Part shown: piece by piece, positions 1 to 36,635 of the stretch | Layout: each line of letters opens with the position of its first letter | Position numbering within the stretch: the first letter of the stretch is position 1 | Origin: an uncultured Azospirillum sp. | GTDB lineage: Bacteria; Pseudomonadota; Alphaproteobacteria; Azospirillales; Azospirillaceae | Direction of reading: 5' to 3' | DNA length: 64,000 bases | Assembly (NCBI GenBank): GCA_965650625.1 | Contig: CBFGPE010000004.1 | Coordinates: 23,115-87,114 of the forward strand | The notes under the pieces: generated by a model | What the model saw: the letters and a program-made list of their open reading frames with translations, nothing else | Databases searched by the model: none | What the model was told of the DNA's origin: nothing | Position numbers and translations under genes: made by a program

Positions 1-1590
1 CCGGCGCGCGATCCACAGATCCTGGAAGGCGAACAGCCGGGTGCGCAAGGCCGCGGCGGCGGAGCCGGCGGGAACCGGGTCGGTGCCGCCCCGGCCCTCC
101 TCCTCGCTCGTCGCCATCAGGCGGTATCCCAGCCCGATCAGCATCTCGCGGGCCATGTCGTTCGCCGCCCGGCCCACCGCGGGATCGTCCCAGGCGCCGC
201 ACCGTTCCAGCAGGGCTTCCCACTGCGCGATGTTGGCGGTTTCCAGGGCCTCGACCGCCTCGGTGCGGCCGCCGCCCGGTTGCCAGCCCTTCCAGAAGAT
301 GACGCGCTTCTGGACCCGCTCCTGCAGGCCGATTTTGCTGCTTGGTCGCCGCAGCGGCCGAGGCCGGGCCGCCAGCACCGTGCAGAGCCGCAGATAGTGC
401 GATGCGACGGTATCCGGGGCCAGGGCCTGGCGCAGGCGGGGGGCGGCACGCCAAGCGCGGGCCTCGTGCTCCTCGTACCGGTCGAGCACCCGGCGGATGG
501 TCCGCGCCAGCCCGTCCGCCGTGGCCGGGTAACTGACCAGCCCGTGGTCGCTGCCGGCATAGAGCGGCAGCACGCTGCCTTCCTGCACCAGCGTGACGCA
601 GCCCATGCACGCAGCCTCGATCCCGCGGGTCACCATGCCGCCGGGACGCCGGTAATAGGCGATGGCCAGTCTGCTGCGCGACAGGAGGTCGTAATAGGTC
701 GCGTTGTCCAGGAAGCCGTTGAAGCCGACCAGCCGCAGCCCCTCGACTTCCAGAATCTGGTGGATCAGCGCCGCCTTGTCGGGGTGCCAGGGTGCGAACA
801 GGGTGCCGGACAGGAACAGGTCGACGTCGCGGTCCCGCCGCCGCAGCCGGGGCAGGCCGGCAGGGTGGCCGAAGCTCTTGGGCACGGTGGTGACGGGGGC
901 ATCCACCAGGGGCCGGACCCCGGCATGTTCGGTATGGTCGGTGACCAGGACCTCGTCGAACAGGCGGAGCCAGGGCAGCATCGCCTGGATGTGCATGTCA
1001 TAGTCGGCGGTCTGGCCCAGAAGCGGGCAGGGCAGGCTGTCCAGATCGGGCGGGATCTGGTGCCATTCCACCATTTCGCACAGGACGAAATCCGGAGGCT
1101 CCTCGCCCCGCCACAGCCGGCGCACCGAGGCATAGGGGGAGTTCGGCCGGTCACCCATTGCGTGGCCGATGTTGGTCAGGGCGAATTTAGGGTCCTGCGC
1201 TCCGCCGGCCAGCAGCACATGCGGACCGGAGGAGGGGGACGGCAGCAGCGACAGAACCTCGATCCGCGGCTTGCGCAGCAGGGCCAGCAGAGCGTGCGCA
1301 TGAGCTTGCCAGGGAGACGGTGCGTCCGACGTCGAGGCGGCCAGCCGTGCCAGCAGGGCGATGGCGCCAACTTCGTCGCCGGCGATCCACAGGGCGGCGG
1401 CCTCGTGGAATCGCGGAGCGGTCCCGTCGAACCGGCCAAGCCCGTCGATGGCTTCGTCGGTACGGCCGATCAGGCCGAGGGCGGCATGGTGCTGCCAGAG
1501 GTCGTCGCGTCCGAGCGCGATGAGCCCGGTATAGTTTCCCGTTACGAAGAGGTGTTCGGCGTCGTTTCTCTGCATACCCGCTTCAGCCAT
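1..1590 (-). CDS. Glycosyltransferase (CgeB/Glyco_trans_1_2-like), truncated by the window edge
   Basis: Manual minus-strand translation gives MAEAGMQRNDAEHLFVTGNY...DVDLFLSGTLFAPWHPDKAAL...YYDLLSRSRLAIAYYRRPGGMVTRGIEAACMGC. It is in codon phase with, and antisense to, the 280..1605 + shadow ORF. No stop was found before the left edge. Confidence 0.7.
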   Translation of the reverse strand, partial: MAEAGMQRNDAEHLFVTGNYTGLIALGRDDLWQHHAALGLIGRTDEAIDGLGRFDGTAPRFHEAAALWIAGDEVGAIALLARLAASTSDAPSPWQAHAHALLALLRKPRIEVLSLLPSPSSGPHVLLAGGAQDPKFALTNIGHAMGDRPNSPYASVRRLWRGEEPPDFVLCEMVEWHQIPPDLDSLPCPLLGQTADYDMHIQAMLPWLRLFDEVLVTDHTEHAGVRPLVDAPVTTVPKSFGHPAGLPRLRRRDRDVDLFLSGTLFAPWHPDKAALIHQILEVEGLRLVGFNGFLDNATYYDLLSRSRLAIAYYRRPGGMVTRGIEAACMGCVTLVQEGSVLPLYAGSDHGLVSYPATADGLARTIRRVLDRYEEHEARAWRAAPRLRQALAPDTVASHYLRLCTVLAARPRPLRRPSSKIGLQERVQKRVIFWKGWQPGGGRTEAVEALETANIAQWEALLERCGAWDDPAVGRAANDMAREMLIGLGYRLMATSEEEGRGGTDPVPAGSAAAALRTRLFAFQDLWIARR

Positions 1591-2222
1591 GCCAGGGCGC
1601 GGTAAATCCCGATCAGAGTCGCCGCATCCTCGATCTCGGAGTTGGCAGCCATCCGCTCCACCGTTTCCAGGTCGAACAGAGTGGTGGCGCCGAGACCTAT
1701 TTCAATTTCATCCGCCCCATCCTTGCCGGGAGCAACTCCGGGGATGGTGCCGGCGGCATCCAGCTGGCCGGCCGGCCGGCAGCGGCGGGCCAGGAACAGC
1801 AGTCCTCGTGCCGCCATGGTCGCTCCCTCCGGCGTGAAGGAGCCGAGCGGGACCAGATCCTCCGGTCCGCAAGCCAGCCCGGTCTCCTCGGTCAGTTCGC
1901 GCCGGGCGGCATCGGCCGGATTCTCCCCCTCGTCGATGAAGCCCTTCACCATCTCCCAACTGCGCTGTCCGAGCGGATGGCGGTGGTTGTGCAGCAGGGC
2001 GAAACGGCCGTCCGCTTCACCCAGCACAGCAACGCCTGTGACCATGTCGGGGCCGGCATGCACGGGTTCTACGACCAGATAGCCGTCGACGGTGGTGCCG
2101 TCGCCGCGCAGGTCGTCGGCATAAGCCCGCCATTTGCTGTTCGCGTAGACGAGACGGCGGGAGGTGAGGATGGGCGGCATGGGTGGAAATCCGGAATGGA
2201 GGTCAATCCGCTCCGACCTCAT
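1542..2222 (-). CDS. NUDIX hydrolase (ADP-ribose/NDP-sugar pyrophosphatase-like)
   Basis: Nudix box GFIDEGENPADAARRELTEETGL. Alternative start at 2180. Confidence 0.85.
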   Translation of the reverse strand: MRSERIDLHSGFPPMPPILTSRRLVYANSKWRAYADDLRGDGTTVDGYLVVEPVHAGPDMVTGVAVLGEADGRFALLHNHRHPLGQRSWEMVKGFIDEGENPADAARRELTEETGLACGPEDLVPLGSFTPEGATMAARGLLFLARRCRPAGQLDAAGTIPGVAPGKDGADEIEIGLGATTLFDLETVERMAANSEIEDAATLIGIYRALAWLKRVCRETTPNTSS

Positions 2223-3210
2223 AGCTCGGTTCGTAGACGATGATCTTGCTGCCGCCGTAATCGATGCCGAACTTGACGGTGATCAGGCGGTTGAGCCGCT
2301 CGATCAGGCGGCGGCGCATCTCCGGCTTGACGAAGAACAGCATGAAGCCGCCGCCGCCGGCACCCAGCAGCTTGCCGCCGCTCGCCCCGGCCGCACGCGC
2401 TTCTTCATAGATTTCGTCGACGATGGGGTTGCTGACGGAACTGGCGAGCTGGCGCTTGAGCTGCCACGCCTCGTGCATCAGCTCTCCCAGCCGGTAGGTG
2501 GGTTCGCGTTCGTCGCTGAGCAGGGAGACACCCTCGTCCACCATGGCGCGGATGCCCATCAACTGGCGTTCGCGATGCTCCAGGTTTTCGATCTTCTCCT
2601 TGGCGACTTCCGACGCGATGCGCGACAGGCCGGTGAAGACCAGCAGCATCGAGGACAGGAGTTCGACGCGCCGTTCCGGGCTGATGATCAGGGGCGTGAC
2701 GGCGAAGCCGCCGTCGGTGTGGAAATCGATCCGGTTCAGACCGCCGTAGGCGGCCCAGATCTGGTCCTGGTAGCCGACATTCTCGCCGATCACCTCCTGC
2801 TCGATGCGGATCGCTTCATTCGCCAGATCGCGCTTGCTGGCCATCTCCCCACGCATGGCGTAGAGGGCATTCAGCAGGCCGACGGTGAAGGACGAGCTGG
2901 ACCCCAGGCCCGAGCGCGCCGGCAGGTCCGCGTCGTGATGGACCTCCAGCCCGCGATGGGCCTTCATCTCGGAAAAGACGGCGCGGACCGCCGGATGTTC
3001 GATTTCCTCGATGGTCTTGGCCAGTTCGATGCGCGAATAGGCGAGGCGGTATTTGTGCTCGAAGAAGGGCGGCAGGCTGCGGACGTTGAGATAGCAGTAT
3101 TTGTCGATCGCCAGTCCGAACACGGCTCCACCATGGCGCCGCACCCAGGTCGGGTAGTCGGTGCCGCCGCCGAAAAGCGAAATGCGGAAAGGGGTGCGGC
3201 TGATGATCAC
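2203..3210 (-). CDS. hddA: D-glycero-alpha-D-manno-heptose-7-phosphate kinase (GHMP family)
   Basis: N-terminus MIISRTPFRISLFGGGTDYP, GHMP motif LPARSGLGSSSSF, GYQDQ, and GGKLLGAGGGGF. Confidence 0.85.
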   Translation of the reverse strand: MIISRTPFRISLFGGGTDYPTWVRRHGGAVFGLAIDKYCYLNVRSLPPFFEHKYRLAYSRIELAKTIEEIEHPAVRAVFSEMKAHRGLEVHHDADLPARSGLGSSSSFTVGLLNALYAMRGEMASKRDLANEAIRIEQEVIGENVGYQDQIWAAYGGLNRIDFHTDGGFAVTPLIISPERRVELLSSMLLVFTGLSRIASEVAKEKIENLEHRERQLMGIRAMVDEGVSLLSDEREPTYRLGELMHEAWQLKRQLASSVSNPIVDEIYEEARAAGASGGKLLGAGGGGFMLFFVKPEMRRRLIERLNRLITVKFGIDYGGSKIIVYEPSYEVGAD

Positions 3211-3353
3211 AGGCGGATATCCTTATATTGGTCCGGACTGCCGGCTCCAAGAATGTCCGGCCTGCTCGATGAATATCTGCTCGCCCCTTTTCGGGCGCTT
3301 CAGCGTCCATCGGATGCTTATTGAAGCAACCGGTGGACGCTGGCCTTTTGATT

Positions 3354-3402
3354 TTGAGCGATTCACGCTTCAGACGATTCCGTCTGAAACGATCGCGCTC
3401 TA
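3354..3402. repeat. Imperfect palindromic element supplying the TAG stop of the radical SAM gene
   Basis: ttgagcgattcacgcttcagacg-attc-cgtctgaaacgatcgcgctcta has a perfect 8-bp inner stem (ttcagacg/cgtctgaa) and outer gagcg/cgctc arms. Confidence 0.55.
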
Positions 3403-4920
3403 ATCGGCCAGGACTTCCATGCCGCTCTCCAGCAGAGCACGGGACAGGGAGTGCTTGGTCATCTGTTCGATATGCTCGCGGGTTTCCCAGCCGAAGCGCT
3501 GGGCCACCATGTCGAGATAGCGCTTGTTGGTGAAATATTCGGTAAAGGCCTGATCGCGGAAGCCCAGCACCTCCGCGGCGGAAATCTTTTCCGTCGGCAG
3601 CGGGGTGCAGTCGTAGCTGTGCTGGGAATAACCGCTCCACTGTTCCGGCAGGGCCCATCCCCTTTCCACCGCCATGGCGTAGAGCGGCGATCCCGGATAG
3701 GCCATCGCGGAATAGAAGTTGCCGAACTCGCAGTTCAGCTCCTTGGCCAGTTCCAGCGTCGCCCGCATGCTGTCCAGGTCGTCGTCGGGCAGACCGAAGA
3801 TGTAATTGCCGATGACGTGAATGCCGGCGGTCTGGATCGACTGTACAACGACACGGATGTCGTCCTGGGTGAAGGACTTGGACGCGCCGTCGCGGACATG
3901 CTCGCTGCCGGATTCGATGCCCAGGGCAAGCCAGCGGAATCCCGCCTTGCGCAGCTTTTCCAGCATGTGCGGCTTGACCGTGTCGACCCGGGCGTAGGCC
4001 CAGATGTTCAGGTCATAGCCGCGTTCGATCAGCCGGTCGCAGATCGCCAGGACATGGCGTTCGTTCAGGACGAACATCTCGTCGATGAACTTGTAGGTCT
4101 TGACGCCATAGTCGTTGTACAACCGGTCGATCTCGGCGACGACAGCGTCGGGCGAGCGCATGCGGTACCGGTTCACCCCGAACGGCGCGTTGATGCAGCA
4201 GAAGCTGCATTTGTAGGGGCAGCCGAGCGAGGTGTAGATGGAGGCGTAGGGCTGCCGCGATCCAAGGTTGCCGAAGCACTGCCAGTTGTGCGCCCGGTAC
4301 TTCTCCATCGGCAGCAGATCCCACACGTTGCCGTGCAGGTCGCCGTCGAGATCCTTGATCAGGGCCGGGGCGAGGTTGTTGCGGATCGTGCCGCCATCCG
4401 CATCCCCTCCGGTCCCCGCCACGCGGTAGACCAGCCCCTCCACCGCTTCGAGCGGCGGAGCCGGTTCCTTCAGCGCGTCGAGAAGCTGGGCGACGGTCAC
4501 CGGCCCTTCGCTGTTGCAGGCGAAGTCCACCGCCTCCTCGCGCAGCGTGCGCTCCGGCAGGGCGGCGACATGGCCGCCGACGATGATGATCGGCTGTTCG
4601 GGCAGGCGCGCCTTGATGGCGCGGCAGGTCAGTCCGGCCCCGACCATCTGCTGGGTCGAGGCGGAGGGCTGATGGCCGAACACCACCATTGCCACCAGGC
4701 GTGGCGCCAGTTCGGCGATGCGCTCCGCCACCTGGTCGGCGGTCAGGTGATCGGCCTCGGCGTCGATGATGTGGATGGAGTGGCCGCGGTCGCGGACATA
4801 GCCGCCGATCAGCCGGCACCACAGCGGCGGTTCGATCGCGGTCAGGGTTGACCCGAGGGACTGATAGATCTTGGTCCGCTCACCAGGGTTGACGAGGACG
4901 AGATCGACGTTCGGACTCAT
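3400..4920 (-). CDS. Cobalamin-binding radical SAM protein (class B methyltransferase-like)
   Basis: N-terminal B12-binding-like domain (IIIVGGHVAALPE), CxxxCxxC motif GCPYKCSFC, FIDEMF, WAYARVD, LGIESGS, and YPGSPLY. Confidence 0.9.
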   Translation of the reverse strand: MSPNVDLVLVNPGERTKIYQSLGSTLTAIEPPLWCRLIGGYVRDRGHSIHIIDAEADHLTADQVAERIAELAPRLVAMVVFGHQPSASTQQMVGAGLTCRAIKARLPEQPIIIVGGHVAALPERTLREEAVDFACNSEGPVTVAQLLDALKEPAPPLEAVEGLVYRVAGTGGDADGGTIRNNLAPALIKDLDGDLHGNVWDLLPMEKYRAHNWQCFGNLGSRQPYASIYTSLGCPYKCSFCCINAPFGVNRYRMRSPDAVVAEIDRLYNDYGVKTYKFIDEMFVLNERHVLAICDRLIERGYDLNIWAYARVDTVKPHMLEKLRKAGFRWLALGIESGSEHVRDGASKSFTQDDIRVVVQSIQTAGIHVIGNYIFGLPDDDLDSMRATLELAKELNCEFGNFYSAMAYPGSPLYAMAVERGWALPEQWSGYSQHSYDCTPLPTEKISAAEVLGFRDQAFTEYFTNKRYLDMVAQRFGWETREHIEQMTKHSLSRALLESGMEVLAD

Positions 4921-5293
4921 AGGATTGTTGCCAGACTCGGGTCATGAGGAGTGTGTCGGCCAGCATAGTCCGAAGGTAAAAGGCGGTCTAGGGAAAACAA
5001 GTTGTCTCGTGTAACAATTTAAGGTGGACATCGCCAGCAACCAAGCTGTTAACCATTGAAGAGCGGAGACGACATGTTAAAAACCTGAAATTATTTATTG
5101 TGCATAGAGGAGTATGAAAAACCCGATACCAAGAAACCTCCGGACGCCGCCGCGCGATCTCTTGAGACCTATTCAGGCCCCGGTGGACGAGGGGTGGCTG
5201 CCGTCGTCATGGCGCCTCCGATCCAGGATCACCGCCTTCGGTTCGGGCCGGCACGGCATGCCATGATATGCCATAAATTTCCGGCAAACGCGA

Positions 5294-6273
5294 TCAGGCG
5301 GATTGCCGCGCGTTCCACCAGGCGCATGTCCGCTCCAGGCCGTCGCGCAGCGATGTCCTGGCGCGCCACCCGAGCGCCAGACAGCGCGAGGCGTCCAGGC
5401 CTTTGCGTGGCATGCCGTCGGGCTTCTCCACGGCATAGTGGAAGCCGCCTTCGTAACCGACGACCGCGGCCACCATCTCCGTCAACTCGGCGATGCTGAC
5501 ATCCTCGCCCGAGCCGACATTGACGATCTCCTCGCCGCTGTAACGCTCCATCAGGAACACCAGGGCATCGGCGGCATCGTCGACATAGAGGAACTCGCGC
5601 CGCGGCCGGCCGGTCCCCCAGACCTCCACCGGCCCGATCCCGGCCGCCTTCGCAGCCTGGATCTTGCGGATCAGGGCCGGCACCACATGGCTGGCGGCCA
5701 GATCGAAATTGTCGCCGGGACCGTAGAGGTTGGTCGGGACGACGGCGATGAAATCGCGGCCGTACTGGCGGCGATAGGCCTGGCACAGCTTGATGCCGGC
5801 GACCTTTGCGGTGGCGTACCACTGGTTGGTCGGCTCGAAGGCGCCGGTCAGCAGGGAGTCCTCGACGATCGGCTGGTCGGCGAATTTGGGATAGATGCAG
5901 GACGACCCGAGGAACATCAGCTTCTCCACCCCGGCCAGATGGGCGCCGTGGATGATGTTGGCCTCGATCGCCAGATTGTCATAGATGAATTCGGCCGGCC
6001 GGGTGTCGTTGGCCAGGATGCCGCCGACGGTGGCGGCGGCGACGAACACGGCTTGCGGGCGCTCGCGCAGCATCCAGGCCTCGACGTCCCTTTGGCGGCG
6101 CAGGTCGACCGCGCCGCGGCCGACGGCAAGCGGCTGAGCGGCTGAGCGGCTGCGGCCGTCAGCCGACGGACCAGGGCCGAGCCGACCATGCCCGTATGCC
6201 CCGCCACCCAGACCCGCTTTCCGGCAAGCGGATACACCACCGGAGCCGCCTGCGTTCCAGTCGTGCTGTCCAT
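5294..6273 (-). pseudogene. fcl: GDP-L-fucose synthase/ColC-like epimerase-reductase, frameshifted by one extra 8-bp repeat unit
   Basis: The N-terminus MDSTTG...KRVWVAGHTGMVGSALVRRL starts at ATG 6273 with an AGGAAGGA RBS. It is in a different frame from the rest (VDLRRQ...AAATVGGILAN...FLGSSCIYPK...WYATAKVAG). The span is 980 bp, and removing 8 bp gives 324 codons. Confidence 0.85.
6129..6152. repeat. Perfect tandem repeat (AGCGGCTG)x3
   Basis: Read directly at 6129-6136, 6137-6144 and 6145-6152. It sits exactly at the fcl frameshift. Confidence 0.95.
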
Positions 6274-6707
6274 GGCGCGTCCTTCCTGTCCGTCGGCATG
6301 CCGTTCGGCCGGGGGCGAATGCCGTTGGCCAGTAAAAGGAAAATAACCACCCATTGTGCGCACCGCAATCCAAATGCCGCCATCCTGGCAACCGGGCCAG
6401 GAGTGAATATCCAAGTATGAGGCGGCGTCTTCCGCCGCATCGGCATGCCGCCGATCCAGGAAGACGGAAGGGCCGTTCCCTGTATTCCCTTGGTTTCCAC
6501 CGCCTCGACGGGCATTGGCAGGAAGATTCCACAAGCAAGTTGAGGATAATAAATAAAGAGAGAATCAACGCTCACTTTGCCGATCCGTTATTGATAAAAA
6601 TTGATGTTTCCATTCGGCCTGTGGCGTAATATCAAAAGTGTATATCGGCCGCGCGCCCTTTATAGGAAAATATTCTGCCTTCAACCCTCGCGCATTCCAG
6701 GGCTTCC

Positions 6708-8759
6708 ATGATCAAGACAGAGTTCAAGAGCAATGTTAAGAAGGCTCCAAAGGTCAGCTTTGTTCTTCTTGATTGGAAGTGCAGGGAAAGCTTCCACTCC
6801 CTCGATTACTTGGCGGAGCAGGATGTTCCGCGACATGATTACGAAATCATCTGGATTGAATATTATGCTCACACGTCAAAAGAAATAAGTGAAAAGATAT
6901 CTGACTATAGCGATAATAATCGTCCGGCGCCCATTGACCTTTGGCTTATTATGAATATGCCGGATGACCTATACTATCATAAGCACCTAATGTATAATAT
7001 TGGGATTGCGAAGAGTCGGGGTGATATTGTCATCATCTGCGACTCTGATGCGATGTTCACAAAATCCTTTGTTCGGACGGTGATCGAAACCTTCGAACGC
7101 ACGCCTGAAATTGCCCTGCACTTTGACGAGGTGCGCAATTCCAAACAGGATTTTTATCCCTTCAACTATCCGCCGTTCGAGTTGCTGACCGGGGATGGGG
7201 CGATCAATTGGCGCGACGGCAAGACCACCGGGCTGTGGGACACCGAGGACCCGCTGCATAGCCGCAATTACGGGGCATGCCTGTGTGCCAGGCGTTCCGA
7301 CCTGATCGCCATCGGCGGCGCCGATGAACACATGGATTACCTTGGCCATGTCTGCGGCCCGTACGAGCTGACCTTCCGCCTCGTCAACAAAGGCCTGAAG
7401 GAGGTCTGGCACGAAAGCGAGTTCCTGTACCACACCTGGCATCCGGGATCCGACGGCGACTTCAACTACATCGGCCCCACCGATGGCCGGCACATGTCCT
7501 CCACCGCGCTCGAGGCGCTGGAGAACGGTCGCATCATGCCGCTCACCGAGAACCCGGTCATCCGCCACGAGCGCGAAAACGGGGTGCCGCCGGCGAACGG
7601 CCAGTTCATCAATCCCGCCTGCCTGAAGGCCTGGACGCAGGAAGAGGTGGCGAAGTCGCCCCGCTTCAAGCTCTTCAAGCGCGGCCAGGGCGGCACCAAG
7701 CTGGTGCGGGAACTGGCCACCTACAACATCCTGTCCTACGACGGCAAATTCTACGGCGTCCCGCATTCCCTGGGGCCGGTTGATCTGGCCAGGAAGGAGG
7801 ACCGGGAAAAGCCGCAGATCGTCGAGGGGGCCTCGGCCGACGAGATCGAGGCGCTTCTCGCCGGGGGCCCGCCCCCCGCGCCCGTCGCGGCGCTTCCCGT
7901 GCAGCAGCCCTCCCAGCCCTCCAGACCGCGGGGCGTCCGGGCTCCTCCGGTTCTGGTCGGTATGGCCGGGCCTTTCAACGTGGTCTCCTATGACGACGCC
8001 TATTTCGGCGTTCCGACCTCGCTGGGACCGGTCGACCTGGCGGATCCGGCCCAGCGCGCCTTGCCGGAAATCCTGAAGGCCTCGACATGGAGCGACGTGG
8101 ACTCGATGATCCGGGCGCAACGCCTGATCCGGCTGGAGGTGGAGAGCCGTGCCCGGGAACAGATGCTGGAGCAGTTGCGGGCGGAACTTGCCGCCAAGGA
8201 CGCGATGATCGCGGACTTCCTGGACACGATCACCACCATGCGCGGTGAAAGCCAAAGCTGGGGTGAGGAGCGCGAGCGCCTGCGTCGCGAGCTGTTCAGC
8301 CTGCAGTTCCGCTTGAACGGTGCCGAGCTGCTCGACACGTTCACGCCGACCGACATCGCGGAGCGCCGTGCCGACGGCATCCGCGTCACCGCCGACAAGC
8401 CGGCCGGCTGTTTCCTGCACGGCTCGCGCCTGTCGCTGGGCAAGGGCAAGTACACGCTCGACATCTGGGGCGCAAGGCAGCACGCGTCCGCAGCGGGGCT
8501 GCCGGTTTTGAGCGTGGATCTGATCAGCAACGGCACGACCACCATCGGGACGTTCAACACCGAGCACTTCGCCGAAACGGCCACGCTGGTTTCGCTGGTG
8601 TTCCAGCTGAACGATGCGCCCACCAACGCCGGGCACGAGTTCGAAATCCGCCTCACCCACTATGGCCGCGTGGATCTGGTTGTCTCGAGGGTGCGGCTGC
8701 GCTTGACCTCCGATACGGGCGCAGCTTCCCCGGTGGGTCTTCACAGACAGCATGCATGA
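6708..8759 (+). CDS. GT2-like glycosyltransferase with internal repeats, coiled coil and C-terminal beta-rich domain
   Basis: GT-A-like N-terminus (KVSFVLLDW...SRGDIVIICDSDAMF...IGGADEHMDY...LYHTWHPG) and two copies of [YF]NxxSYDxxxxGVPxSLGPVDLA. Confidence 0.75.
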   Translation: MIKTEFKSNVKKAPKVSFVLLDWKCRESFHSLDYLAEQDVPRHDYEIIWIEYYAHTSKEISEKISDYSDNNRPAPIDLWLIMNMPDDLYYHKHLMYNIGIAKSRGDIVIICDSDAMFTKSFVRTVIETFERTPEIALHFDEVRNSKQDFYPFNYPPFELLTGDGAINWRDGKTTGLWDTEDPLHSRNYGACLCARRSDLIAIGGADEHMDYLGHVCGPYELTFRLVNKGLKEVWHESEFLYHTWHPGSDGDFNYIGPTDGRHMSSTALEALENGRIMPLTENPVIRHERENGVPPANGQFINPACLKAWTQEEVAKSPRFKLFKRGQGGTKLVRELATYNILSYDGKFYGVPHSLGPVDLARKEDREKPQIVEGASADEIEALLAGGPPPAPVAALPVQQPSQPSRPRGVRAPPVLVGMAGPFNVVSYDDAYFGVPTSLGPVDLADPAQRALPEILKASTWSDVDSMIRAQRLIRLEVESRAREQMLEQLRAELAAKDAMIADFLDTITTMRGESQSWGEERERLRRELFSLQFRLNGAELLDTFTPTDIAERRADGIRVTADKPAGCFLHGSRLSLGKGKYTLDIWGARQHASAAGLPVLSVDLISNGTTTIGTFNTEHFAETATLVSLVFQLNDAPTNAGHEFEIRLTHYGRVDLVVSRVRLRLTSDTGAASPVGLHRQHA

Positions 8760-8822
8760 CGGGGCGGCTCTGCCGGAGGCCGGCCAGAAACAGATCATTC
8801 GCTTTCCAGCGGAGGGGACGGA

Positions 8823-9167
8823 GTGTCCAACAGGATGTTTGAGCAGCGTCTTGCCACGGCCGAGAAGCGGATGGCCGAACGAGACCCGCGGAACCAGGAG
8901 CTGTCGGCCTTGGTCGAAGAGGTGGGCGAGCAGAATCGGCTGCTCCGGCACGCCTTGAACGAACAGGACAAGCGCATCCGGTCCCTGGAAGCCGCCTTGG
9001 CCGAACAGGCTCGCGTGCTTCAGGCCATCCGGGGGGAACTCGCGGACTCCGGCAGGCCAGTGGATGGCGGCCCGGCTCTTCTCAGCCTGTCGGCCCGCGT
9101 TCAGCTGATCGACGATGCGCTGACCGACCTTCGCCTTGCTGTTTTGGAAAGGTCCGGCACCCGGTAG
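8823..9167 (+). CDS. Hypothetical coiled-coil protein
   Basis: GTG start after GGAGGGG, heptad-like helical sequence, and it fills the gap between co-oriented genes. Confidence 0.6.
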   Translation: MSNRMFEQRLATAEKRMAERDPRNQELSALVEEVGEQNRLLRHALNEQDKRIRSLEAALAEQARVLQAIRGELADSGRPVDGGPALLSLSARVQLIDDALTDLRLAVLERSGTR

Positions 9168-9202
9168 AGTGCCGCCGCCCGGCCATTCGGGCCGGGGGGC
9201 TG

Positions 9203-11734
9203 ATGAAAGAGAGCAGCATGTTTATCCATTTCGACCTGCCCCGTGCCGCCGGGGATTCGCTGATGGACTGTGTCGAGCGCGTCTATGGTGCGTCGCGGGT
9301 GCTGCATCTTGGACACGGGCTTCGTTTCGATATGTCGTACGAGTCCCTGCTCAGCAAAACACCTGACGAACTTGATCTGATAAAGAACCACTACGGATGT
9401 GCGGTGACGAAGCATGCCTTCTCTCTGCACAAGATACTCGGGGCTCCGTACGTTGGTTTCATTCGAAATCCCTTTGACTGGTATGTTTCTTCATATTATT
9501 GGGCACGAAAGAACAGTCTGGGGAACCCGTCTGAATTTTACGGGTATATGATCGATAAACATGATATGTCATTGGAGTATTTTGTTCATTGGCTTCACGA
9601 CATAGGTCACGACAATAATCAGGCCAAGAATATTTTATACCTTTCAAAAGATCACGACAGCGTCCTGCCTCCGGATCCGGCGGACATCACCCTCGATGAA
9701 GCGAGTTTCGCCCAGACCATCGAACTGACTGAGACCGCGTTCGCGGTTCTTGCGCCGACCGATCTGTTCGGTCCGGCGCTCTATGTCATGGGCATGCTGT
9801 TCGACTGGCCGGACCTGCCGCTGTGGCGGCTGCGCTCTTCGTCCAACTGGCGCGCCTCGGCGTCGATCCCCGACACGCTCGAGGACTTCGTGCGCGAGCG
9901 CAGCCCCCATGACTGGAACCTGTTCGCCGCCGTCCGCAAAGGGTTCGAACAGCGTTATGCCGATGTTCTGACCGCCCGCGCCGCCGAGATCGCGGACTAC
10001 GACGCCTGCTCGCGGAACCCCGCCTGGCAGGACGCGATGCCGTTTCATGTCCGCGACGTTCAGGATCATCTCCAGCAGGGCATCCGCCTTCAGGCACCGC
10101 CGCCCCGCGACCCGGCCGCCGTCCCCGGCGCCCTGCGGGGGAACTGCATGTCGGGGCTCAAGCTGCATCTTCACGGCGTGGTCCATGGGCATTTCCTGCT
10201 GTCGCCCCGCCGGGACAGCCCGCCCTTCCTGGCCGTGCCGATGGTCAGCCTGATCCACCAGACCGCCGATCCGGACCGGCTCTGGCCATTCTACGGCCCG
10301 GGCGTTCTGTTCGACCGGTCGCTGGAAGGGCTCCGGCAACGGATCGAGGCGGGAGAGGTCCCGAGCCTGGTGGAAAGTCAGGGGGATCTCCAGATCTGGT
10401 TCTACCGAGGCGCGTACCGGTTCCTGGAGTGGGCGGCCGGCGCCGACATCGACGCGGTGTATGGCGATCCCGAGCGGACGCTGGGCGGTTCCCTCCAGGC
10501 CACGGACTGGCCGACGGCCCGTCTGTTCTTCACGCTGTTCACCGATCCGTTCCAGCGGCAGCGGATCGACGGGTTCGGCATCGTCGAAGGGGTGGAGGCT
10601 GAGCCCTGGAGGGCCGAACCGACGGCCGGCGGACCGGCGGTCACCGCCCCGTCCCTGCTGCGGTTGCTCGAAGCGCTGCAGGGCAGCGGGCGCCTTTCCC
10701 TGCGGTCGCCACCGCCGTTCCTGATCGACAGCCTGACCGACTACAATCTGGTCAAGTACCAGGGCCGGAATTACGGCGCGCGCCAGGGGGCCGGGGATCT
10801 GGAAGCCCTGCTGGCGGAGCCGGGGGAAAACCTCGTCGAGGCTGCGGCGCTGACGGATGTGCGGCGGGCGATCATCGACCGCTGGCTCTCTCACCGGTCG
10901 CCGGATCCCCACCTGATCGAAACCCTGGGCGTGACCAACATCGTCCTGTTCCGGGACCGTTTCGTCGCGTTGCCGCAAGCCCTCGGGGCCGTCGATTTGT
11001 CCGATCCCGCGACGTTCCACCTGCCCGGCGTGATCGTCAGCCGCAGCCGGACTCGCCTGCGGCATCTGGTCGCAACGGAAGCCGCCGGCCAGGACGTGAA
11101 CACGCAGGCGGGCACCGCACCGACCTCGGACGACCGTCCGGCGCCCCTGCTGCCGGACGCGTCCGGAAAGGGGCGGCTGTTCTGGCTGACCGGTTTGTCC
11201 GGGGCTGGCAAGACCACGGTCGCCCTGCGTGTGTGCGCGCGGCTGCGGGCAGCCGGGCTGCCGGCGGTGCTGCTCGACGGCGACCGCCTGCGGGCCGCCA
11301 TCGCTCCCGATGCCGGTCACGCCCCCGACCAGCGCCGCCAGCTGGCCTTTTCCTACGCCCGTCTGTGCCGGGAACTGGCGGAGCAGGGGCTGGTCGTCGT
11401 CATCGCCACCATTTCGATGTTCCATGCGGTCCGCCACTGGAATCGCGAAAATGTGGACGGCTATCGCGAAATATACTTGCGCGTTCCGCTTGAGCACCGC
11501 GCCGATCGTGACCCGAAGGGCTTGTACCGTAACGCCACTGTGGATATGGTCGGAATGGATACCTCCATTGAGGAGCCGGATCAGCCAGATCTCGTAATTG
11601 ACAATTACGGCACGACGACTCCGGACGGCGCGGCCGACCTGATCTGGAACCGATTGATTGCGTCCGATGCGGCTCTGATCGGCTTATCGGCTGCAGCCCC
11701 CGAAGACGGGGCTTTGAAGAAACCCACACATTAA
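9203..11734 (+). CDS. Fusion: sulfotransferase-like N-terminal domain, repeat region, and C-terminal CysC/Cj1415-like kinase
   Basis: N-terminus FIHFDLPRAAGDS...FIRNPFDWYVSSYY resembles Sulfotransfer_2 motifs. C-terminus has WLTGLSGAGKTT, LLDGD, TISMF, RDPKGLY and EEPDQPDLVIDN. Confidence 0.8.
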   Translation: MKESSMFIHFDLPRAAGDSLMDCVERVYGASRVLHLGHGLRFDMSYESLLSKTPDELDLIKNHYGCAVTKHAFSLHKILGAPYVGFIRNPFDWYVSSYYWARKNSLGNPSEFYGYMIDKHDMSLEYFVHWLHDIGHDNNQAKNILYLSKDHDSVLPPDPADITLDEASFAQTIELTETAFAVLAPTDLFGPALYVMGMLFDWPDLPLWRLRSSSNWRASASIPDTLEDFVRERSPHDWNLFAAVRKGFEQRYADVLTARAAEIADYDACSRNPAWQDAMPFHVRDVQDHLQQGIRLQAPPPRDPAAVPGALRGNCMSGLKLHLHGVVHGHFLLSPRRDSPPFLAVPMVSLIHQTADPDRLWPFYGPGVLFDRSLEGLRQRIEAGEVPSLVESQGDLQIWFYRGAYRFLEWAAGADIDAVYGDPERTLGGSLQATDWPTARLFFTLFTDPFQRQRIDGFGIVEGVEAEPWRAEPTAGGPAVTAPSLLRLLEALQGSGRLSLRSPPPFLIDSLTDYNLVKYQGRNYGARQGAGDLEALLAEPGENLVEAAALTDVRRAIIDRWLSHRSPDPHLIETLGVTNIVLFRDRFVALPQALGAVDLSDPATFHLPGVIVSRSRTRLRHLVATEAAGQDVNTQAGTAPTSDDRPAPLLPDASGKGRLFWLTGLSGAGKTTVALRVCARLRAAGLPAVLLDGDRLRAAIAPDAGHAPDQRRQLAFSYARLCRELAEQGLVVVIATISMFHAVRHWNRENVDGYREIYLRVPLEHRADRDPKGLYRNATVDMVGMDTSIEEPDQPDLVIDNYGTTTPDGAADLIWNRLIASDAALIGLSAAAPEDGALKKPTH

Positions 11735-11749
11735 ACCGAAATAGGGACT

Positions 11750-12526
11750 TTGGATCATATGCGCGGTCATGGCGATTTCACCGGGTTGGCAGAAAAATAT
11801 TCGAAATACCGCCCGACCTATTCGGCGACGGTCCGGGACGCGCTGATCGGCATGCTGCCGAAGCCGGCCGGGGAAGTCGAGGCAGCCGACGTCGGCGCCG
11901 GCACCGGCATCTGGACCCGTCTCGTGGCCGAACGGGTCCGCCATGTCACGGCGGTCGAGCCCAATGACGACATGCGCCGGCTCGGCATCGCCGATTCCGC
12001 CGGTCACCGGATCGAATACCGTGTCGGCTCCGGTGAGCAGACCGGCCTTGCCGACGCCTCGGTGGACATGGTCAGCATGGCGTCGTCCTTCCACTGGGTC
12101 GATTTCGAGCGCGGCCTGGCCGAGTTCCACCGCATCCTGCGTCCGGAAGGCCGCTTCGTCGCGCTGTGGAACCCGCGCCTGATCGATGCCAATCCCCTGC
12201 TGGTGGAGATCGAGGCGGAGATCACCCGGCTGGCCCCGGAAGTCGAGCGGGTGTCGTCCGGCAATTCCGGCATCACCGGGACCCTGACCGAGCGGCTGTG
12301 GGCCAGCCGGCAGTTCGACGACGTGGTCTATCTGGAAGGCCGTCACACCGTCGACCAGACCCCCGAACAGTATCTGGGCGTCTGGAATTCGGTGAACGAC
12401 GTGCGCCACCAGCTCGGCCCCGATCGCTGGGCCGCCTTCATGGCCTTCGTCGAGGCGCGGATCGCCGGCCTCGACGTGATCACCACCACCTATCGCACCC
12501 GTGCCTGGTCTGCACGCCGTCGGTGA
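11750..12526 (+). CDS. Class I SAM methyltransferase (Cj1419-like MeOPN methyltransferase candidate)
   Basis: YSKYRPTY, ADVGAGTG, AVEPNDDMR, ASSFHW, and C-terminal TRAWSARR. Confidence 0.85.
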   Translation: MDHMRGHGDFTGLAEKYSKYRPTYSATVRDALIGMLPKPAGEVEAADVGAGTGIWTRLVAERVRHVTAVEPNDDMRRLGIADSAGHRIEYRVGSGEQTGLADASVDMVSMASSFHWVDFERGLAEFHRILRPEGRFVALWNPRLIDANPLLVEIEAEITRLAPEVERVSSGNSGITGTLTERLWASRQFDDVVYLEGRHTVDQTPEQYLGVWNSVNDVRHQLGPDRWAAFMAFVEARIAGLDVITTTYRTRAWSARRR

Positions 12527-12534
12527 GACTGCCC

Positions 12535-14889
12535 ATGGACACCTCCGCCTTAACGCGCCGGATCGCCTTCGGCAGCAAAGCCGAAACCCTGGAGCGCCTC
12601 GCACCGCATTTGAGGACGGCGCACGTCCTCGATCTGGTTCGCTTCCGGGCCGTCGATTGGAACGCGGGCGGCATGGAGGCGATCCTCGACCGCATCGCCT
12701 CCACACCGTGGGGCAGGCGGGGGCCTCTGATCGTCCGGTCTTCCGCCGCGGCGGAGGACCGGGAAGGGCAGTCCCTGGCCGGGCATTTCGTATCGATCGG
12801 CAACGTCGATCCGGCCGGGCTGCCGGCCGCCATCGCCGAGGTGGCGGCCTCCTTCGGGGATGAGCCGGTAGCGGCGGACCAGATCTTCGTCCAGCCCATG
12901 CTGACGGCCGCCATGAGCGGCGTCGCCTTCACCCGGGATCCCAACACCGGCGCTCCCTACCTGATCATCAATTACGAGGAGGGCGGCGACACCGCGGCGG
13001 TCACCGGCGGCCACGCCGCCGAATTGAAGACCTTCGTCTATTGGAAGGGCGCCACGGTGCCGTGCCCGTCCCCCCTCGACCAGGTCGTGGCGCTCGCCGG
13101 CGAACTGGAAGCGCTGCTCGGGGAGGAAAGCCTCGACATCGAGTTCGCGGTCTCGCCGACCGGCGAGCTGTACCTGTTCCAGGTGCGGCCGCTGTCCGCC
13201 GCCGCCGGAACGGCCGTCGGCGCCGACGAGCACCGGCCGCTGCTGGAAGCCATCGCCCAGAAGATCGCCCAGGCCAATCGGCCGCACCCCTACCTGCGCG
13301 GCCGCCGCACCCTGTACGGCGTCATGCCCGACTGGAACCCGGCCGAAATCATCGGCATCCGGCCACGGCCGCTGGCGCTGTCGCTGTACCGGCAGCTGGT
13401 CACCGACAGCGTCTGGGCCTACCAGCGCCACAATTACGGCTACCGGAACCTGCGCAGCTTTCCGCTGATGCGGTCCTTCCATGGGCTGCCGTACATCGAC
13501 GTCCGCCTCAGCTTCAATTCCTTCATTCCGGGCGACGTGCCGGACACGCTCGCCGACCGTCTGGTGGACTGCTACATCGACCAGCTCGCGGCGGCACCGG
13601 TGCTCCACGACAAGGTCGAGTTCGAGATCGTCTTCTCCTGCTACACCTTCGACCTCGACACCCGCCTGCAACGTCTGCGCGGCTTCGGCTTCTCGGAGCG
13701 CGATCTCGAAGAGCTGACCCAGAGCCTGCGTCGGCTGACCAACCGGATCATCCACCGCGAAACCGGCTTGTGGCGCAACGACAGCAAGAAGATCGGGATC
13801 CTGGAGGAGCGGCAGCGGACCATCCGCAGCACCGACATGGACATCGTCAGCCGCATCTATTGGCTGATGGAGGATTGCAAGCGCTACGGCACCCTGCCTT
13901 TCGCCGGCTTGGCCCGCGCCGGCTTCATCGCCGTCCAGATGCTGAAGTCGCTGGTGGCGGTCGGCGCGATCGAGCCGCAGCAGTACGACGCCTTCATGAC
14001 CAGCCTGGAGACCGTCAGCGGCCGCATGACCCGCGATCTGCGTGCCCTGTCCCGCTCGGAATTCCTGGAGAAATACGGGCACCTGCGTCCCGGGACCTAC
14101 GATATCCTGTCGCCGCGCTACGACGAGGATCCGGAACGCTACCTCGGTTCCGAGCACGGCGCCGGTCCGCACGACGAGGGCGCGGTGCCGACTTTCGCCC
14201 TGTCGCTGCCCCAGATGCGCCGGATCGACGCCCTCCTGAACCAGCACTCCCTGGAAATGGACGTGGTCAGCCTGTTCGACTTCTTCCAGGCCGGCATCCA
14301 GGGCCGCGAGCATTCGAAATTCGTCTTCACCCGGTCGCTGAGCGAGGTGCTGTCGCTGCTGAACCGCCTGGGCGAACGCTATGGATTGTCGCCGGACGAC
14401 ATGTCCTATTTCGATGCCTCTCTCATCGACGATCTCTACGCATCCAGCTGCGACATCGAGGCGACGCTGCGCCACAGCATCAGCCAGGGCCGCGCCCGCT
14501 ATGCGGAAACCCAGCGCATCGTTCTGCCGCCGCTGATCAGCCAGCCCGAGGAGGTCTGGGCGTTCCACATTCCTCCCACCGAACCCAACTTCATCACCCA
14601 GCGGACGGTGGAGGGGCCTGTGCGGTCGCACAAGGCGCCGGCGTCGGAGCTGAAGGGGGCGGTGGTGGTGATCCCCAGCGCCGATCCGGGCTTCGACTGG
14701 ATCTTCTCCCACGGCATCGGCGGCTTCATCACCGCCTATGGCGGGGTCAATTCCCACATGGCCATCCGCGCCGGCGAACTGAACCTTCCCGCCGTGATCG
14801 GGGCCGGGGAGACGCTGTTCAGCCAGTGGAAGGACAGCCGCCGCCTGCGCATCGACTGCGCATCCCGCCGGGTGGATGTCCTGCAATGA
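12535..14889 (+). CDS. PEP-synthase-like L-glutamine kinase (Cj1418-like)
   Basis: FGSKAETL, IVRSSAAAED, VQPML, DIEFA, YGVMPDWNPAEIIG, KRYGTLPFAGLARAGF, YGHLRPGTYDI, DPGFDWIF, and phospho-His motif GGVNSHMAIR. Confidence 0.9.
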   Translation: MDTSALTRRIAFGSKAETLERLAPHLRTAHVLDLVRFRAVDWNAGGMEAILDRIASTPWGRRGPLIVRSSAAAEDREGQSLAGHFVSIGNVDPAGLPAAIAEVAASFGDEPVAADQIFVQPMLTAAMSGVAFTRDPNTGAPYLIINYEEGGDTAAVTGGHAAELKTFVYWKGATVPCPSPLDQVVALAGELEALLGEESLDIEFAVSPTGELYLFQVRPLSAAAGTAVGADEHRPLLEAIAQKIAQANRPHPYLRGRRTLYGVMPDWNPAEIIGIRPRPLALSLYRQLVTDSVWAYQRHNYGYRNLRSFPLMRSFHGLPYIDVRLSFNSFIPGDVPDTLADRLVDCYIDQLAAAPVLHDKVEFEIVFSCYTFDLDTRLQRLRGFGFSERDLEELTQSLRRLTNRIIHRETGLWRNDSKKIGILEERQRTIRSTDMDIVSRIYWLMEDCKRYGTLPFAGLARAGFIAVQMLKSLVAVGAIEPQQYDAFMTSLETVSGRMTRDLRALSRSEFLEKYGHLRPGTYDILSPRYDEDPERYLGSEHGAGPHDEGAVPTFALSLPQMRRIDALLNQHSLEMDVVSLFDFFQAGIQGREHSKFVFTRSLSEVLSLLNRLGERYGLSPDDMSYFDASLIDDLYASSCDIEATLRHSISQGRARYAETQRIVLPPLISQPEEVWAFHIPPTEPNFITQRTVEGPVRSHKAPASELKGAVVVIPSADPGFDWIFSHGIGGFITAYGGVNSHMAIRAGELNLPAVIGAGETLFSQWKDSRRLRIDCASRRVDVLQ

Positions 14890-15524
14890 CGACGGTTCGG
14901 CCCGTGGCCGCGCGCCTGATCGCCGTCAGCCAGCGGGTGGACGTGATCGCCGGCCGCAACGAGCGGCGCGACGCTCTGGATCAGCGGTGGACCGGCTTCC
15001 TGGACGCCTGCGGCCTGCTGCCCGTGGCGATGCCCAACACGGCGTCGCCCGCTCTCGCGGCGGCTTGGCTTGAGGCGGTGGCTCCCGCCGGCATCCTGCT
15101 GACCGGCGGCAACGATCTGACGGCCTATGGCGGCGACGCCCCGGAACGCGACGCCGTGGAAACCCTGCTGATCGAGCATGCGGTCGCCCGGCGCATCCCG
15201 CTGATGGCCGTCTGTCGGGGCCTGCAGATGCTGATGCACCATTTCGGCGCCGGGCTGGAACGGGTGACGGGCCACACCGGCACCGAGCATCCGGTCGTCC
15301 TGGGCGATGGCGGGACGGACACCGTGAATTCCTACCACAATTGGGCCTTCACGAGCGTTCCGCCCGGTTTCACCGCCTGGGCGACCGCGCCCGACGGCGT
15401 GGTCGAGGCGGTTCGCCACGACACGTTGCCGCTGCTCGGCATGCTCTGGCATCCCGAACGCAATGCCCCCTACCGCGCCGCGGAGATCGATCTGGTCCGT
15501 CGTCATTTCGGGGTTGATCGGTAG
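14886..15524 (+). CDS. Class I glutamine amidotransferase-like gamma-glutamyl hydrolase (Cj1417-like)
   Basis: ATGA overlap with the kinase gene; LLTGGNDL, nucleophile elbow VCRGLQ, NSYH, and WHPER. Confidence 0.85.
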   Translation: MTTVRPVAARLIAVSQRVDVIAGRNERRDALDQRWTGFLDACGLLPVAMPNTASPALAAAWLEAVAPAGILLTGGNDLTAYGGDAPERDAVETLLIEHAVARRIPLMAVCRGLQMLMHHFGAGLERVTGHTGTEHPVVLGDGGTDTVNSYHNWAFTSVPPGFTAWATAPDGVVEAVRHDTLPLLGMLWHPERNAPYRAAEIDLVRRHFGVDR

Positions 15525-15574
15525 CGGGGGCTTGCTGCAACGTCCACGGGTCCGCCGCATCCGCGCCTTCCCGC

Positions 15575-15605
15575 TTTCCCTGAATTTGGTTTTCCCTGAA
15601 TTTGG
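15575..15605. repeat. 15-bp direct repeat (tttccctgaatttgg x2) just upstream of the cytidylyltransferase
   Basis: Copies at 15575-15589 and 15591-15605. Confidence 0.7.
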
Positions 15606-15614
15606 AGTGCTTCC

Positions 15615-16361
15615 GTGAAAGCGATCATCCTTGCCGCCGGGCGTGGCAGCCGCATGAAGGCCATGACCGAGGACCGGCCGAAGTGTCTGGTTGAAATCGC
15701 CGGGCGCAGCCTGCTGGACTGTCAGCGCACTGCCCTGACCGGTGCCGGCGCCGGCCCGCTGGCCGTGGTGCGCGGCTATCGCGGCGAGGCGTTCGAAGGA
15801 CGCGGGCTGACCCTGTTCGATAATCCCCGCTGGGCCGAAACCAACATGGTCATGTCGCTGGTCCAGGCAGCCCCGTGGCTGAGCGCCGAACCGTGCCTCG
15901 TCAGCTACGCCGACATCTTCTACCCGGCGGAGACGGTGCGCCGGCTGATGGCGGCCGAAGGCGACATCGTCATCAGCTACGATCCGGACTGGCTGGCCCT
16001 GTGGCAGGCCCGCTTCGCCGATCCGCTGGTCGATGCCGAGAGCTTCCTGCTCGACGCGACCGGCCGGGTCATCGACATCGGCCGCAAGGTCCAGAGCCTC
16101 GACGAGGTCCAGGGGCAGTACATGGGCCTGCTGAAATTCACTCCCGCCGGCTGGGCACAGGTCACCGGCTATCTCGACGGGCTGGAACCGGCGGCGCGCG
16201 ACAAGCTGGACATGACCGGCCTGCTGTCGCGGCTGATCGCCGCCGGCGTGGTCATCCGGGCGGTCCCCAGCGCTCCCGGCTGGGGCGAGGTCGATTCCGA
16301 AAGCGATCTCGACCATTATGCCGCGGAGGTGGCGGCCGGGCGCGTCGCGCTGCCGGTCTGA
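15615..16361 (+). CDS. Phosphocholine/phosphoglutamine cytidylyltransferase family (Cj1416-like)
   Basis: KAIILAAGRGSRM, PKCLV, TNMV, SYADI, W...RFADPLVDAES, QYMGLLKF, and WGEVDSESDL. GTG start. Confidence 0.85.
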   Translation: MKAIILAAGRGSRMKAMTEDRPKCLVEIAGRSLLDCQRTALTGAGAGPLAVVRGYRGEAFEGRGLTLFDNPRWAETNMVMSLVQAAPWLSAEPCLVSYADIFYPAETVRRLMAAEGDIVISYDPDWLALWQARFADPLVDAESFLLDATGRVIDIGRKVQSLDEVQGQYMGLLKFTPAGWAQVTGYLDGLEPAARDKLDMTGLLSRLIAAGVVIRAVPSAPGWGEVDSESDLDHYAAEVAAGRVALPV

Positions 16362-29133: not shown

Positions 29134-29253
29134 AACGCGCCGCGGCATTGGTAGTCCGGCAACCCTTGAGGGCGCAAGGACTGTGTGGACGGGCGGAAAG
29201 GCGCCGTGATAGGTGGATCGCTCCCGCTTCCGGCACAGAACGCGTATCGCCCC

Positions 29254-35983: not shown

Positions 35984-36635
35984 AACGCCTGCCGGAACGC
36001 CGGCCCGGATCAAGGCCGTCCTCTACGACATGGACGGCGTACTGATCGATGCCAAGGACTGGCATTACGAAGCGCTGAACGAGGCGCTCGCCCTGTTCGG
36101 CATGGAGATCAAGCGCGACGAGCATCTGGCGCTCTATGACGGCCTGCCGACCCGCCGCAAGCTGGAGATGCTGAGCGCCAGCCGGCAGCTGCCGGTCCGG
36201 CTGCACGGCTTCATCAACGAGATGAAGCAGCGCCGCACCATCGAGCTGGCCTATTCGCGCTGCCGCCCCTTCTTTCCCCACCAGTACGCGCTGTCGCGCC
36301 TCCAGGCGGAAGGCTACCGGCAGGCGGCCTGCTCCAACTCCATCCGCAACACGGTGGCGGTGATGCTCGGACAGGCGGCCCTGCTGCCCTATTTCGAGTT
36401 CTACCTGTCCAACGAGGATGTGGCCCAGGCCAAGCCGCACCCGGAGATTTACCTGACGGCGATGCAGCGGATGGGCCTGGCGCCGCAGGAATGCCTGATC
36501 GTCGAGGACAACGAGCATGGCATCCGCGCCGCCAGGGCCAGCGGCGCCCATGTGATGGAGGTCGGGGACGTCTACGACGTCACCTATGACCGCATCCGCC
36601 GGCACATCGCCCGCGCCCAGGGAGAGACGCCGTGA
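35973..36635 (+). CDS. HAD-superfamily phosphatase
   Basis: YDMDGVLID, CSNS, KPHPEIY, and VEDNEHG. Confidence 0.88.
   Translation: MPAETPAGTPARIKAVLYDMDGVLIDAKDWHYEALNEALALFGMEIKRDEHLALYDGLPTRRKLEMLSASRQLPVRLHGFINEMKQRRTIELAYSRCRPFFPHQYALSRLQAEGYRQAACSNSIRNTVAVMLGQAALLPYFEFYLSNEDVAQAKPHPEIYLTAMQRMGLAPQECLIVEDNEHGIRAARASGAHVMEVGDVYDVTYDRIRRHIARAQGETP

Follow-up and report, generated by a model that had tools for sequence, protein, structure and literature searches.

The Fcl-family gene at 5294..6273 on the minus strand of the window, i.e., the whole 64,000-nucleotide stretch analysed (C4:23115-87114), was frameshifted by a third copy of an octamer, and this redundant fcl paralogue probably carries a null allele that arose recently by strand slippage. 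The preliminary description had proposed a phase-variable glycan switch, a recent null mutation, or an assembly error at this site. Our analysis favoured the null mutation, because the three-copy form was a derived +8 bp change relative to all orthologues, differed from an intact allele at 3 of 956 nt, and contained no second lesion. There was no sign that the site arose as a contingency switch or serves as one.

The array, (AGCGGCTG)x3, was perfect and located at 6129..6152 (no strand assigned), exactly where the preliminary description had placed both the repeat and the frameshift; Tandem Repeats Finder indicated a period of 8, 3.0 copies, and 100% matches. The gene-strand form of the unit is CAGCCGCT, repeated three times head-to-tail, and the array lies 121 nt inside the gene, whose ATG and stop codon are at 6273-6271 and 5296-5294, respectively, on the minus strand. 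The ATG frame encodes MDSTT...GHTGMVGSALVRRLTAAAAQPL (MDSTTGTQAAPVVYPLAGKRVWVAGHTGMVGSALVRRLTAAAAQPL in full) and is afterwards out of the enzyme frame. Reading of this frame gave a premature stop at 5917..5919 on the minus strand and a 118-aa product whose native sequence is confined to the first 46 residues; no record was found by an exact look-up of this frameshifted product. The 5' piece (6129..6273, minus strand), in the ATG frame, carries the NADP-binding Rossmann motif GHTGMVG, and the 3' piece (5294..6139, minus strand), in the shifted frame, carries GSSCIYP, YATAK, and the remaining enzyme. No additional stop or frameshift was observed in the 3' piece; the enzyme remainder, from …AVGRGAVDLRRQRDVEAWML… to …WWNARQSA, was open in the frame of ORF 5294..6568. 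Deletion of 8 nt fused both frames into a single 323-aa frame. Indeed, the intact 323-aa enzyme that the preliminary description had expected from two copies is exactly the protein encoded by the natural alleles P0132 and P0123.

The two pieces were compared with the NCBIfam model GDPFucSynFcl (NF047922). The 5' piece matched profile positions 2-26 with 30 bits and the 3' piece matched positions 32-305 with 430 bits, and this division of one match across two frames indicates a frame change at the repeat. Both scores were below the equivalog cut-off of 500 bits, which applies to the whole protein, and the intact orthologues P0132, P0124, and P0122 scored 466-471 bits, just below it. In Pfam, the broken gene matched Epimerase and GDP_Man_Dehyd. 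The nearest PDB structures were GDP-L-fucose synthases, namely 8du0/7ll6 (324 bits) and the E. coli enzyme 1bsv (287 bits). The alignment with 8du0/7ll6 covered residues 7-275 of the 3' piece, in which the catalytic GSSCIYP and YATAK (Ser-x-Cys and YxxxK) were kept. The GxxGxxG NADP(H) motif and the catalytic domain are thus kept but encoded in different frames, not in one polypeptide. The profile, the motifs, and the solved relatives place the gene among the short-chain dehydrogenases, in the Fcl branch, in agreement with the fcl-like identity first assigned to it. It is probably a GDP-L-fucose synthase paralogue of the GDP-4-keto-6-deoxy-D-mannose 3,5-epimerase/4-reductase type. The top matches in NCBIfam and the PDB were all Fcl, with no ColC model or structure among the matches, and a GDP-heptose-type substrate is possible in view of the adjoining HddA-like kinase.

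The window lies in a draft genome of 6.9 Mb in 271 contigs with 68% G+C. Over its first 12 kb, identity was 93% with AZO_p6, a plasmid of Azospirillum lipoferum 4B, and 91% with a plasmid of 290 kb from A. ramasamyi M2T2B2; the window derives from an Azospirillum plasmid island matching AZO_p6. On one strand, the order of a large glycosyltransferase-containing protein, a NUDIX hydrolase, a kinase, a radical SAM enzyme, and fcl was conserved. The gene next downstream of fcl encodes an intact B12-binding radical SAM enzyme (3400..4920, minus strand; 'radical SAM protein' in the annotation of A. lipoferum 4B), separated from fcl by a gap of 373 nt with a promoter-like site. A scan of 4800-6800 for promoters and terminators yielded a single promoter-like site, the one upstream of the radical SAM gene, a count no higher than in shuffled sequences. 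The intact GHMP sugar kinase (2203..3210, minus strand) was assigned as HddA-like from NF049969 and the PDB; its score of 136 bits was far under the NF049969 cut-off of 600, and its structural relatives were the heptose-phosphate kinases 4usk, 3k85, and 4n3o. The NUDIX hydrolase (1542..2222, minus strand), supported by Pfam and the A. lipoferum 4B annotation, was also intact, and the large glycosyltransferase-containing protein of ~1127 aa (1..1590, minus strand) is present as its 5' part and leaves the window. On the divergent side, which was also conserved, a GT2-like glycosyltransferase (6708..8759, plus strand) shares the intergenic region 6274-6707 with the broken gene and is accompanied by a small ORF, an APS-kinase fusion, a methyltransferase, and a PEP-utilising enzyme; profile searches supported the matches to the APS kinase and the PEP utiliser.

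Other genes of the same genome make the broken copy redundant. An intact fcl paralogue was found on the same island, 16 kb away, at C4:11998-12909 (64% identical; 511-512 bits against NF047922, above the cut-off), and another at C50:36704-37618 (55% identical; 478-479 bits). A gmd gene was found at C4:3483-4505 with 622 bits. With two intact fcl paralogues and gmd, the supply of GDP-fucose would probably be little affected by the lesion, and selection against it would be weak. Furthermore, since the donor made by the enzyme is diffusible, a clear-cut OFF phenotype is unlikely to follow from the loss of one copy.

The preliminary description had connected the gene with GT11-type transferases. 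Ten large ORFs located at 29-49 kb were searched with Pfam; the matches were GT41-TPR (two TPR-GT41 proteins), GT4, WavE, and nucleotidyltransferases, and GT11 was not among them. The GT11 model PF01531 had 0 matches in the genome and was equally silent in control genomes. According to PMC10835893, which cites Chen et al. (2023), an alpha-1,2-fucosyltransferase has been reported from A. lipoferum, and fucosylation in this clade is plausible for this reason.

Subsequently, the site was compared among relatives. The orthologue in A. lipoferum 4B is AZOLI_RS29165 (WP_014189869.1), named GDP-L-fucose synthase and intact with 323 aa, and its site reads AAGGCGCG|CAACCGCT. The orthologue in A. thiophilum (G003) is likewise intact with 323 aa and reads AATGCGCG|CAACCGCT. 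A. thiophilum, A. lipoferum 4B, and A. ramasamyi were all exactly 8 bp shorter at the array site, where their sequences were non-repetitive. We obtained closer alleles from a 90%-identity protein cluster around the window gene. This cluster contained intact proteins that carry exactly the predicted ...LTAAAAQPLAVGRGAVDL..., and their DNA has CAGCCGCT twice. Two-copy forms were represented by P0132 (ENA metagenome ERZ27393852, locus L032), P0123 (JGI 3300056388), and the N-terminal half of P0003 (JGI 3300049823, locus L031). The L032 allele, which reads ...AAAAQPLAVGRGAVDL..., was 99.7% identical to the window gene: apart from the extra unit, 3 nt differed in 956, two of them synonymous and one exchanging Ser/Arg. 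An imperfect pair, CAGGCGCG|CAGCCGCT, was observed in the Logan contig L039. The relatives thus form a series from non-repeat through imperfect pair and perfect pair to three copies, and the only copy states seen were three (the window and Logan contig L029) and two (L031, L032, and P0123). Since the intact orthologues are 8 bp shorter and L032 has two copies, the presence of three copies represents a derived gain of one unit (+8 bp) on a two-copy background. Four scans of metagenome and genome contigs with a gapped pattern of 1-4 copies and a fixed 25-mer gave no matches, and the allele set was not widened.

The dN/dS of the gene against its orthologues was 0.13-0.17. Together with the single lesion, this value indicates that the break is recent. 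The otherwise perfect preservation of the gene is what is expected of either a very recent break or a regularly reverting allele, and this observation runs counter to a reading as a null allele only. In A. ramasamyi, lesions unrelated to the repeat have destroyed the orthologue: a deletion of 22 bp has removed GxxGxxG, a second deletion comprises 62 bp, the 3' part is frameshifted, and no CDS was annotated. About 20 related contigs shared this dead orthologue, and the neighbouring genes were intact; the orthologue of the window gene is therefore repeatedly dispensable.

These results would be explained by the following course of events. In the lineage of the strain, two adjacent identical octamers, CAGCCGCT CAGCCGCT, encoded the loop and strand after the Rossmann helix in the plasmid-borne gene, and replication slippage presumably inserted one further unit (from two to three copies, +8 bp). 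Ribosomes starting at the ATG now translate the 46 native residues, enter the shifted frame, and stop after 118 aa, so that the catalytic two-thirds is detached from the NADP-binding motif and the window copy is OFF. The other paralogues would keep up the supply of GDP-fucose, and the effect on the phenotype would be weak. Slipping back to two copies would be possible in principle, probably at a low rate.

The genuineness of the third copy has a bearing on every reading of the locus. The Logan contig L029 (SRR14536432) was 100% identical to the window over 4704 nt and had three copies. Because this separate assembly has the same three copies, an assembler slip as the source of the third copy, one of the options in the preliminary description, is unlikely. 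A wider form of the same objection attributes the third copy to an artefact of the sequencing, the library, or the assembly, or to a mutation in the laboratory stock, and assumes two copies in the wild strain. The assembly is indeed a draft in 271 contigs, and the Logan run may derive from the same isolate, in which case an error of the assembler would be excluded and a change in the laboratory stock would not. The metagenome contig L030 (ERZ27321121), moreover, was 100% identical over 3846 nt and its identity broke exactly within the repeat, as if assemblers struggle at this site; its terminal 130 nt had no match in the genome or in 40 relatives, and we counted it for neither allele as a probable chimeric contig end. 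Against these points, two different assemblers gave the same three-copy sequence, and 4-5 contigs in NCBI, ENA, and Logan have given records of the 259-aa truncated product P0127, which is a gene-caller call of the 3' piece. Short-read errors do not typically take the form of an exact 8-bp tandem duplication, and a 24-nt array is much shorter than the read length. The assemblies each showed a single allele, and in the genome assembly only the three-copy junction was present, the two-copy junction being absent. An artefact or a stock mutation is therefore very unlikely.

The third copy being accepted, the question is whether it belongs to a reversible slipped-strand switch, with two copies ON and three OFF, that varies a fucose-type residue of the glycan of the island. 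Such a switch might also act by polarity and lower the expression of the radical SAM enzyme, kinase, NUDIX hydrolase, and glycosyltransferase. The part of the proposal that stood is that both two- and three-copy alleles exist in nature, in coding sequences as close as described above. The gene, moreover, has no secondary lesion and was under strong purifying selection in the past, the octamer pair was perfected stepwise within the lineage, and the gene is the first in a surface-glycan operon, which is a typical location for a switch. Switching by a low-copy repeat is known from icaC of Staphylococcus aureus (PMC4117637), and phenotypic variants of Azospirillum are known as well (Vial et al., 2006, as cited in PMC3899980). 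The remainder of the proposal fared worse. The unit is long and present in only two to three copies, a nucleotide-sugar synthase is a poor target in a genome that also has gmd and two intact paralogues of it, the A. ramasamyi orthologue has been irreversibly lost with its neighbours kept, and a single change in a single direction was observed. Polarity, for its part, is weakened by the gap and the promoter-like site before the radical SAM gene. The genome-wide repeat counts also argue against a switch. Perfect 2x8 arrays numbered 221, against about 270 expected, and at this chance level the two-copy ON state is not a selected repeat. Perfect 3x8 arrays, on the other hand, were seen twice in the 6.9-Mb genome against 0.01 expected from base composition, and none was found in three 2-Mb third-order Markov simulations; an array so far above chance indicates that the three copies reflect a duplication event. 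Only six perfect non-triplet arrays of at least 20 nt, including the two 3x8 arrays, were detected in the 6.9 Mb, so that the genome has no set of contingency loci (phasome), although phasome membership is a usual and not a strictly defining feature of the contingency-locus class. Both mutS and mutL were intact. Features of contingency loci that were present are an in-frame tandem repeat whose unit is not a multiple of three and a copy number that differs between close relatives (two versus three); a published copy-number cut-off for octamers was not found in the phase-variation literature. In the working definition of PMC11868660, phase variation is visible in both directions without selection at about 1e-5 or more per colony, and nothing at the present locus reaches this standard. 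On balance, a phase switch is unlikely, and it is quite unlikely that the two/three-copy octamer is a working low-copy switch and the first simple-sequence contingency locus in Azospirillum. A further possibility is a bypass during expression, in which programmed +1/-2 ribosomal frameshifting or slippage in transcription would still yield the full-length enzyme. In its favour, neither piece has any other damage, and the shifted frame stays open through the junction. However, CAGCCGCTCAGCCGCTCAGCCGCT contains no slippery heptamer, homopolymer run, or stop-codon pause site, the local fold was no better than shuffles (z = -0.72), an Rfam search of 1-16000 gave no match, and every relative encodes the enzyme in one frame; a bypass is extremely unlikely.

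With regard to the genome-wide counts, two minor points may be added. The long frames across the other 3x8 array, at C222:1704, resembled spurious high-GC frames. A mutator background was also considered and was rejected, both mismatch repair genes mentioned above being intact.

Among known systems, the (CTGG)3 repeat of E. coli lacI is the best analogue of the window locus. It is an ordinary mutational hot spot for frameshifts, according to the account of Farabaugh et al. (1978) in PMC12606429, and it has been reproduced in Pseudomonas putida (PMC3485313). In both cases, a low-copy perfect repeat in a coding sequence gains or loses one unit by slippage and gives revertible frameshift nulls; they differ in that the unit here is 8 bp, not 4, and that the functional state here has two copies, not three. 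The site under study belongs to the same class of mutational hot spots as lacI (CTGG)3.

In S. aureus, 'ttta' phase variation of icaC reverts at about 1 in 45,000 divisions independently of RecA, has a clear phenotype and a fitness effect, and varies in 9% of genomes (PMC4117637). Like the window locus, icaC has a low-copy repeat in a polysaccharide-synthesis gene, a one-unit expansion that truncates the product, and natural copy-number variants. Reversibility, however, has been demonstrated for icaC, and the window gene has two intact paralogues. The contingency tracts of Haemophilus, Neisseria, Campylobacter, and Helicobacter have copy numbers well above chance and switch in both directions at 100-10,000 times the basal rate, and such loci are many per genome and mostly encode non-redundant transferases (PMC11868660). 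The window locus shares with them a non-triplet unit in a surface-glycan gene, in which copy number sets the frame. In contrast, it has two to three copies, an ON state at chance level, six comparable arrays in the genome, and a redundant nucleotide-sugar synthase as its product.

Another comparison is with AZOLI_RS29165 of A. lipoferum 4B, the orthologue on AZO_p6 in the same gene order and within the same 12 kb at 93% identity; unlike the window gene, it is intact and repeat-free at the site. Azospirillum itself has been described as undergoing phase variation when plasmids are lost or rearranged (Vial et al., 2006, as cited in PMC3899980). As far as that citation describes it, such variation resembles the present case in being a heritable change of plasmid-borne traits in the same genus, and it differs in that its mechanism is a large-scale replicon change, not repeat slippage.

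The result is mainly a point of annotation: this fcl copy is a frameshifted pseudogene in the source strain, and the glycan chemistry of the island should be predicted from the two other fcl genes and gmd. If switching did occur at the level of the culture, a repeat-based mechanism would be added to the phenotypic variation of Azospirillum by plasmid loss, a root-associated bacterium could vary a plasmid-encoded surface or protein glycan, and the finding would be relevant to the stability of surface glycans in inoculant strains. The series from non-repeat to perfect repeat would in that case represent the birth of a contingency locus in progress. The locus and its close relatives also provide a clean natural example of the birth of a slippage hot spot.

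At the 8-bp repeat of the frameshifted Fcl-family gene, window positions 6129-6160 were aligned with loci L033, L010, L039, L031, and L032 (alignment A4). A. lipoferum 4B had AAGGCGCG|CAACCGCT at the repeat site, the Logan contig L039 of a further relative had CAGGCGCG|CAGCCGCT, and CAGCCGCT was present in two copies in the metagenome alleles and in three copies in the window strain. Taken together, these aligned sequences trace a stepwise "repeat birth" across relatives, proceeding from A. lipoferum 4B through L039 and the two-copy metagenome alleles to the three copies of the window strain. Substitutions in alignment A4 at window 6129-6160 exceeded the regional average (93-94% identity), possibly because the protein loop encoded here is variable or because misalignment templated the mutations. 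Directly upstream of the array, GGCTGACGGCC (window 6139-6165, minus strand) can form an 11-bp hairpin with the initial units of the repeat (GCCG-C-TCAGCC). The energy of the local fold was no better than that of shuffled sequences (z = -0.72).

Besides the fcl array, only five perfect non-triplet tandem arrays of at least 20 nt were found in the genome: CCGGTTGC x3 (G000:C222:1704-1727), TCGTCCT x4 (C150:8669), AGAAAGCGGG x3 (C185:4143), CGCCG x4 (C71:22650), and TCCGGCC x3 (C98:18788). The metagenome contig L030 (ENA ERZ27321121 NODE_3127) matched the window strain at 100% identity over 3846 nt, and the match stopped within the 8-bp repeat. Its terminal 130 nt (L030:1-132) encoded a portion of some unrelated gene in the opposite orientation and had no match in the genome of the window strain or in 40 relatives; the contig is either chimeric at this end or spans a genuine breakpoint.

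Upstream of the window, on the same contig and plasmid island, we found gmd (622 bits) with an adjoining second Gmd/Rmd-like gene (307 bits; G000:C4:2436-4505) and an intact fcl (G000:C4:11998-12909) scoring above the equivalog cut-off. The island therefore holds a complete GDP-fucose route without the broken copy, and the same gene set possibly also provides a GDP-rhamnose route. Within the window, two TPR-GT41 (OGT-like) proteins were encoded on the minus strand at 30589-32706 and 40000-42165 (Pfam Glyco_transf_41, 315 and 166 bits, respectively). Two double nucleotidyltransferase ORFs were located at 29185-30558 and 36632-38155. The two TPR-GT41 proteins would fit a role of the island in protein glycosylation.

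In the relative A. ramasamyi M2T2B2 (G019; plasmid NZ_CP029835.1; L011:1280-1640 and L034:7916-9851), the fcl orthologue was a pseudogene with multiple lesions: deletions of 22 bp (eliminating GxxGxxG) and 62 bp, plus a frameshift in its 3' part. The site carried no annotated CDS. Pieces of this pseudogene (protein records P0125, P0126, P0128, P0130, P0131, and P0133) were present on about 20 ENA and Logan contigs.
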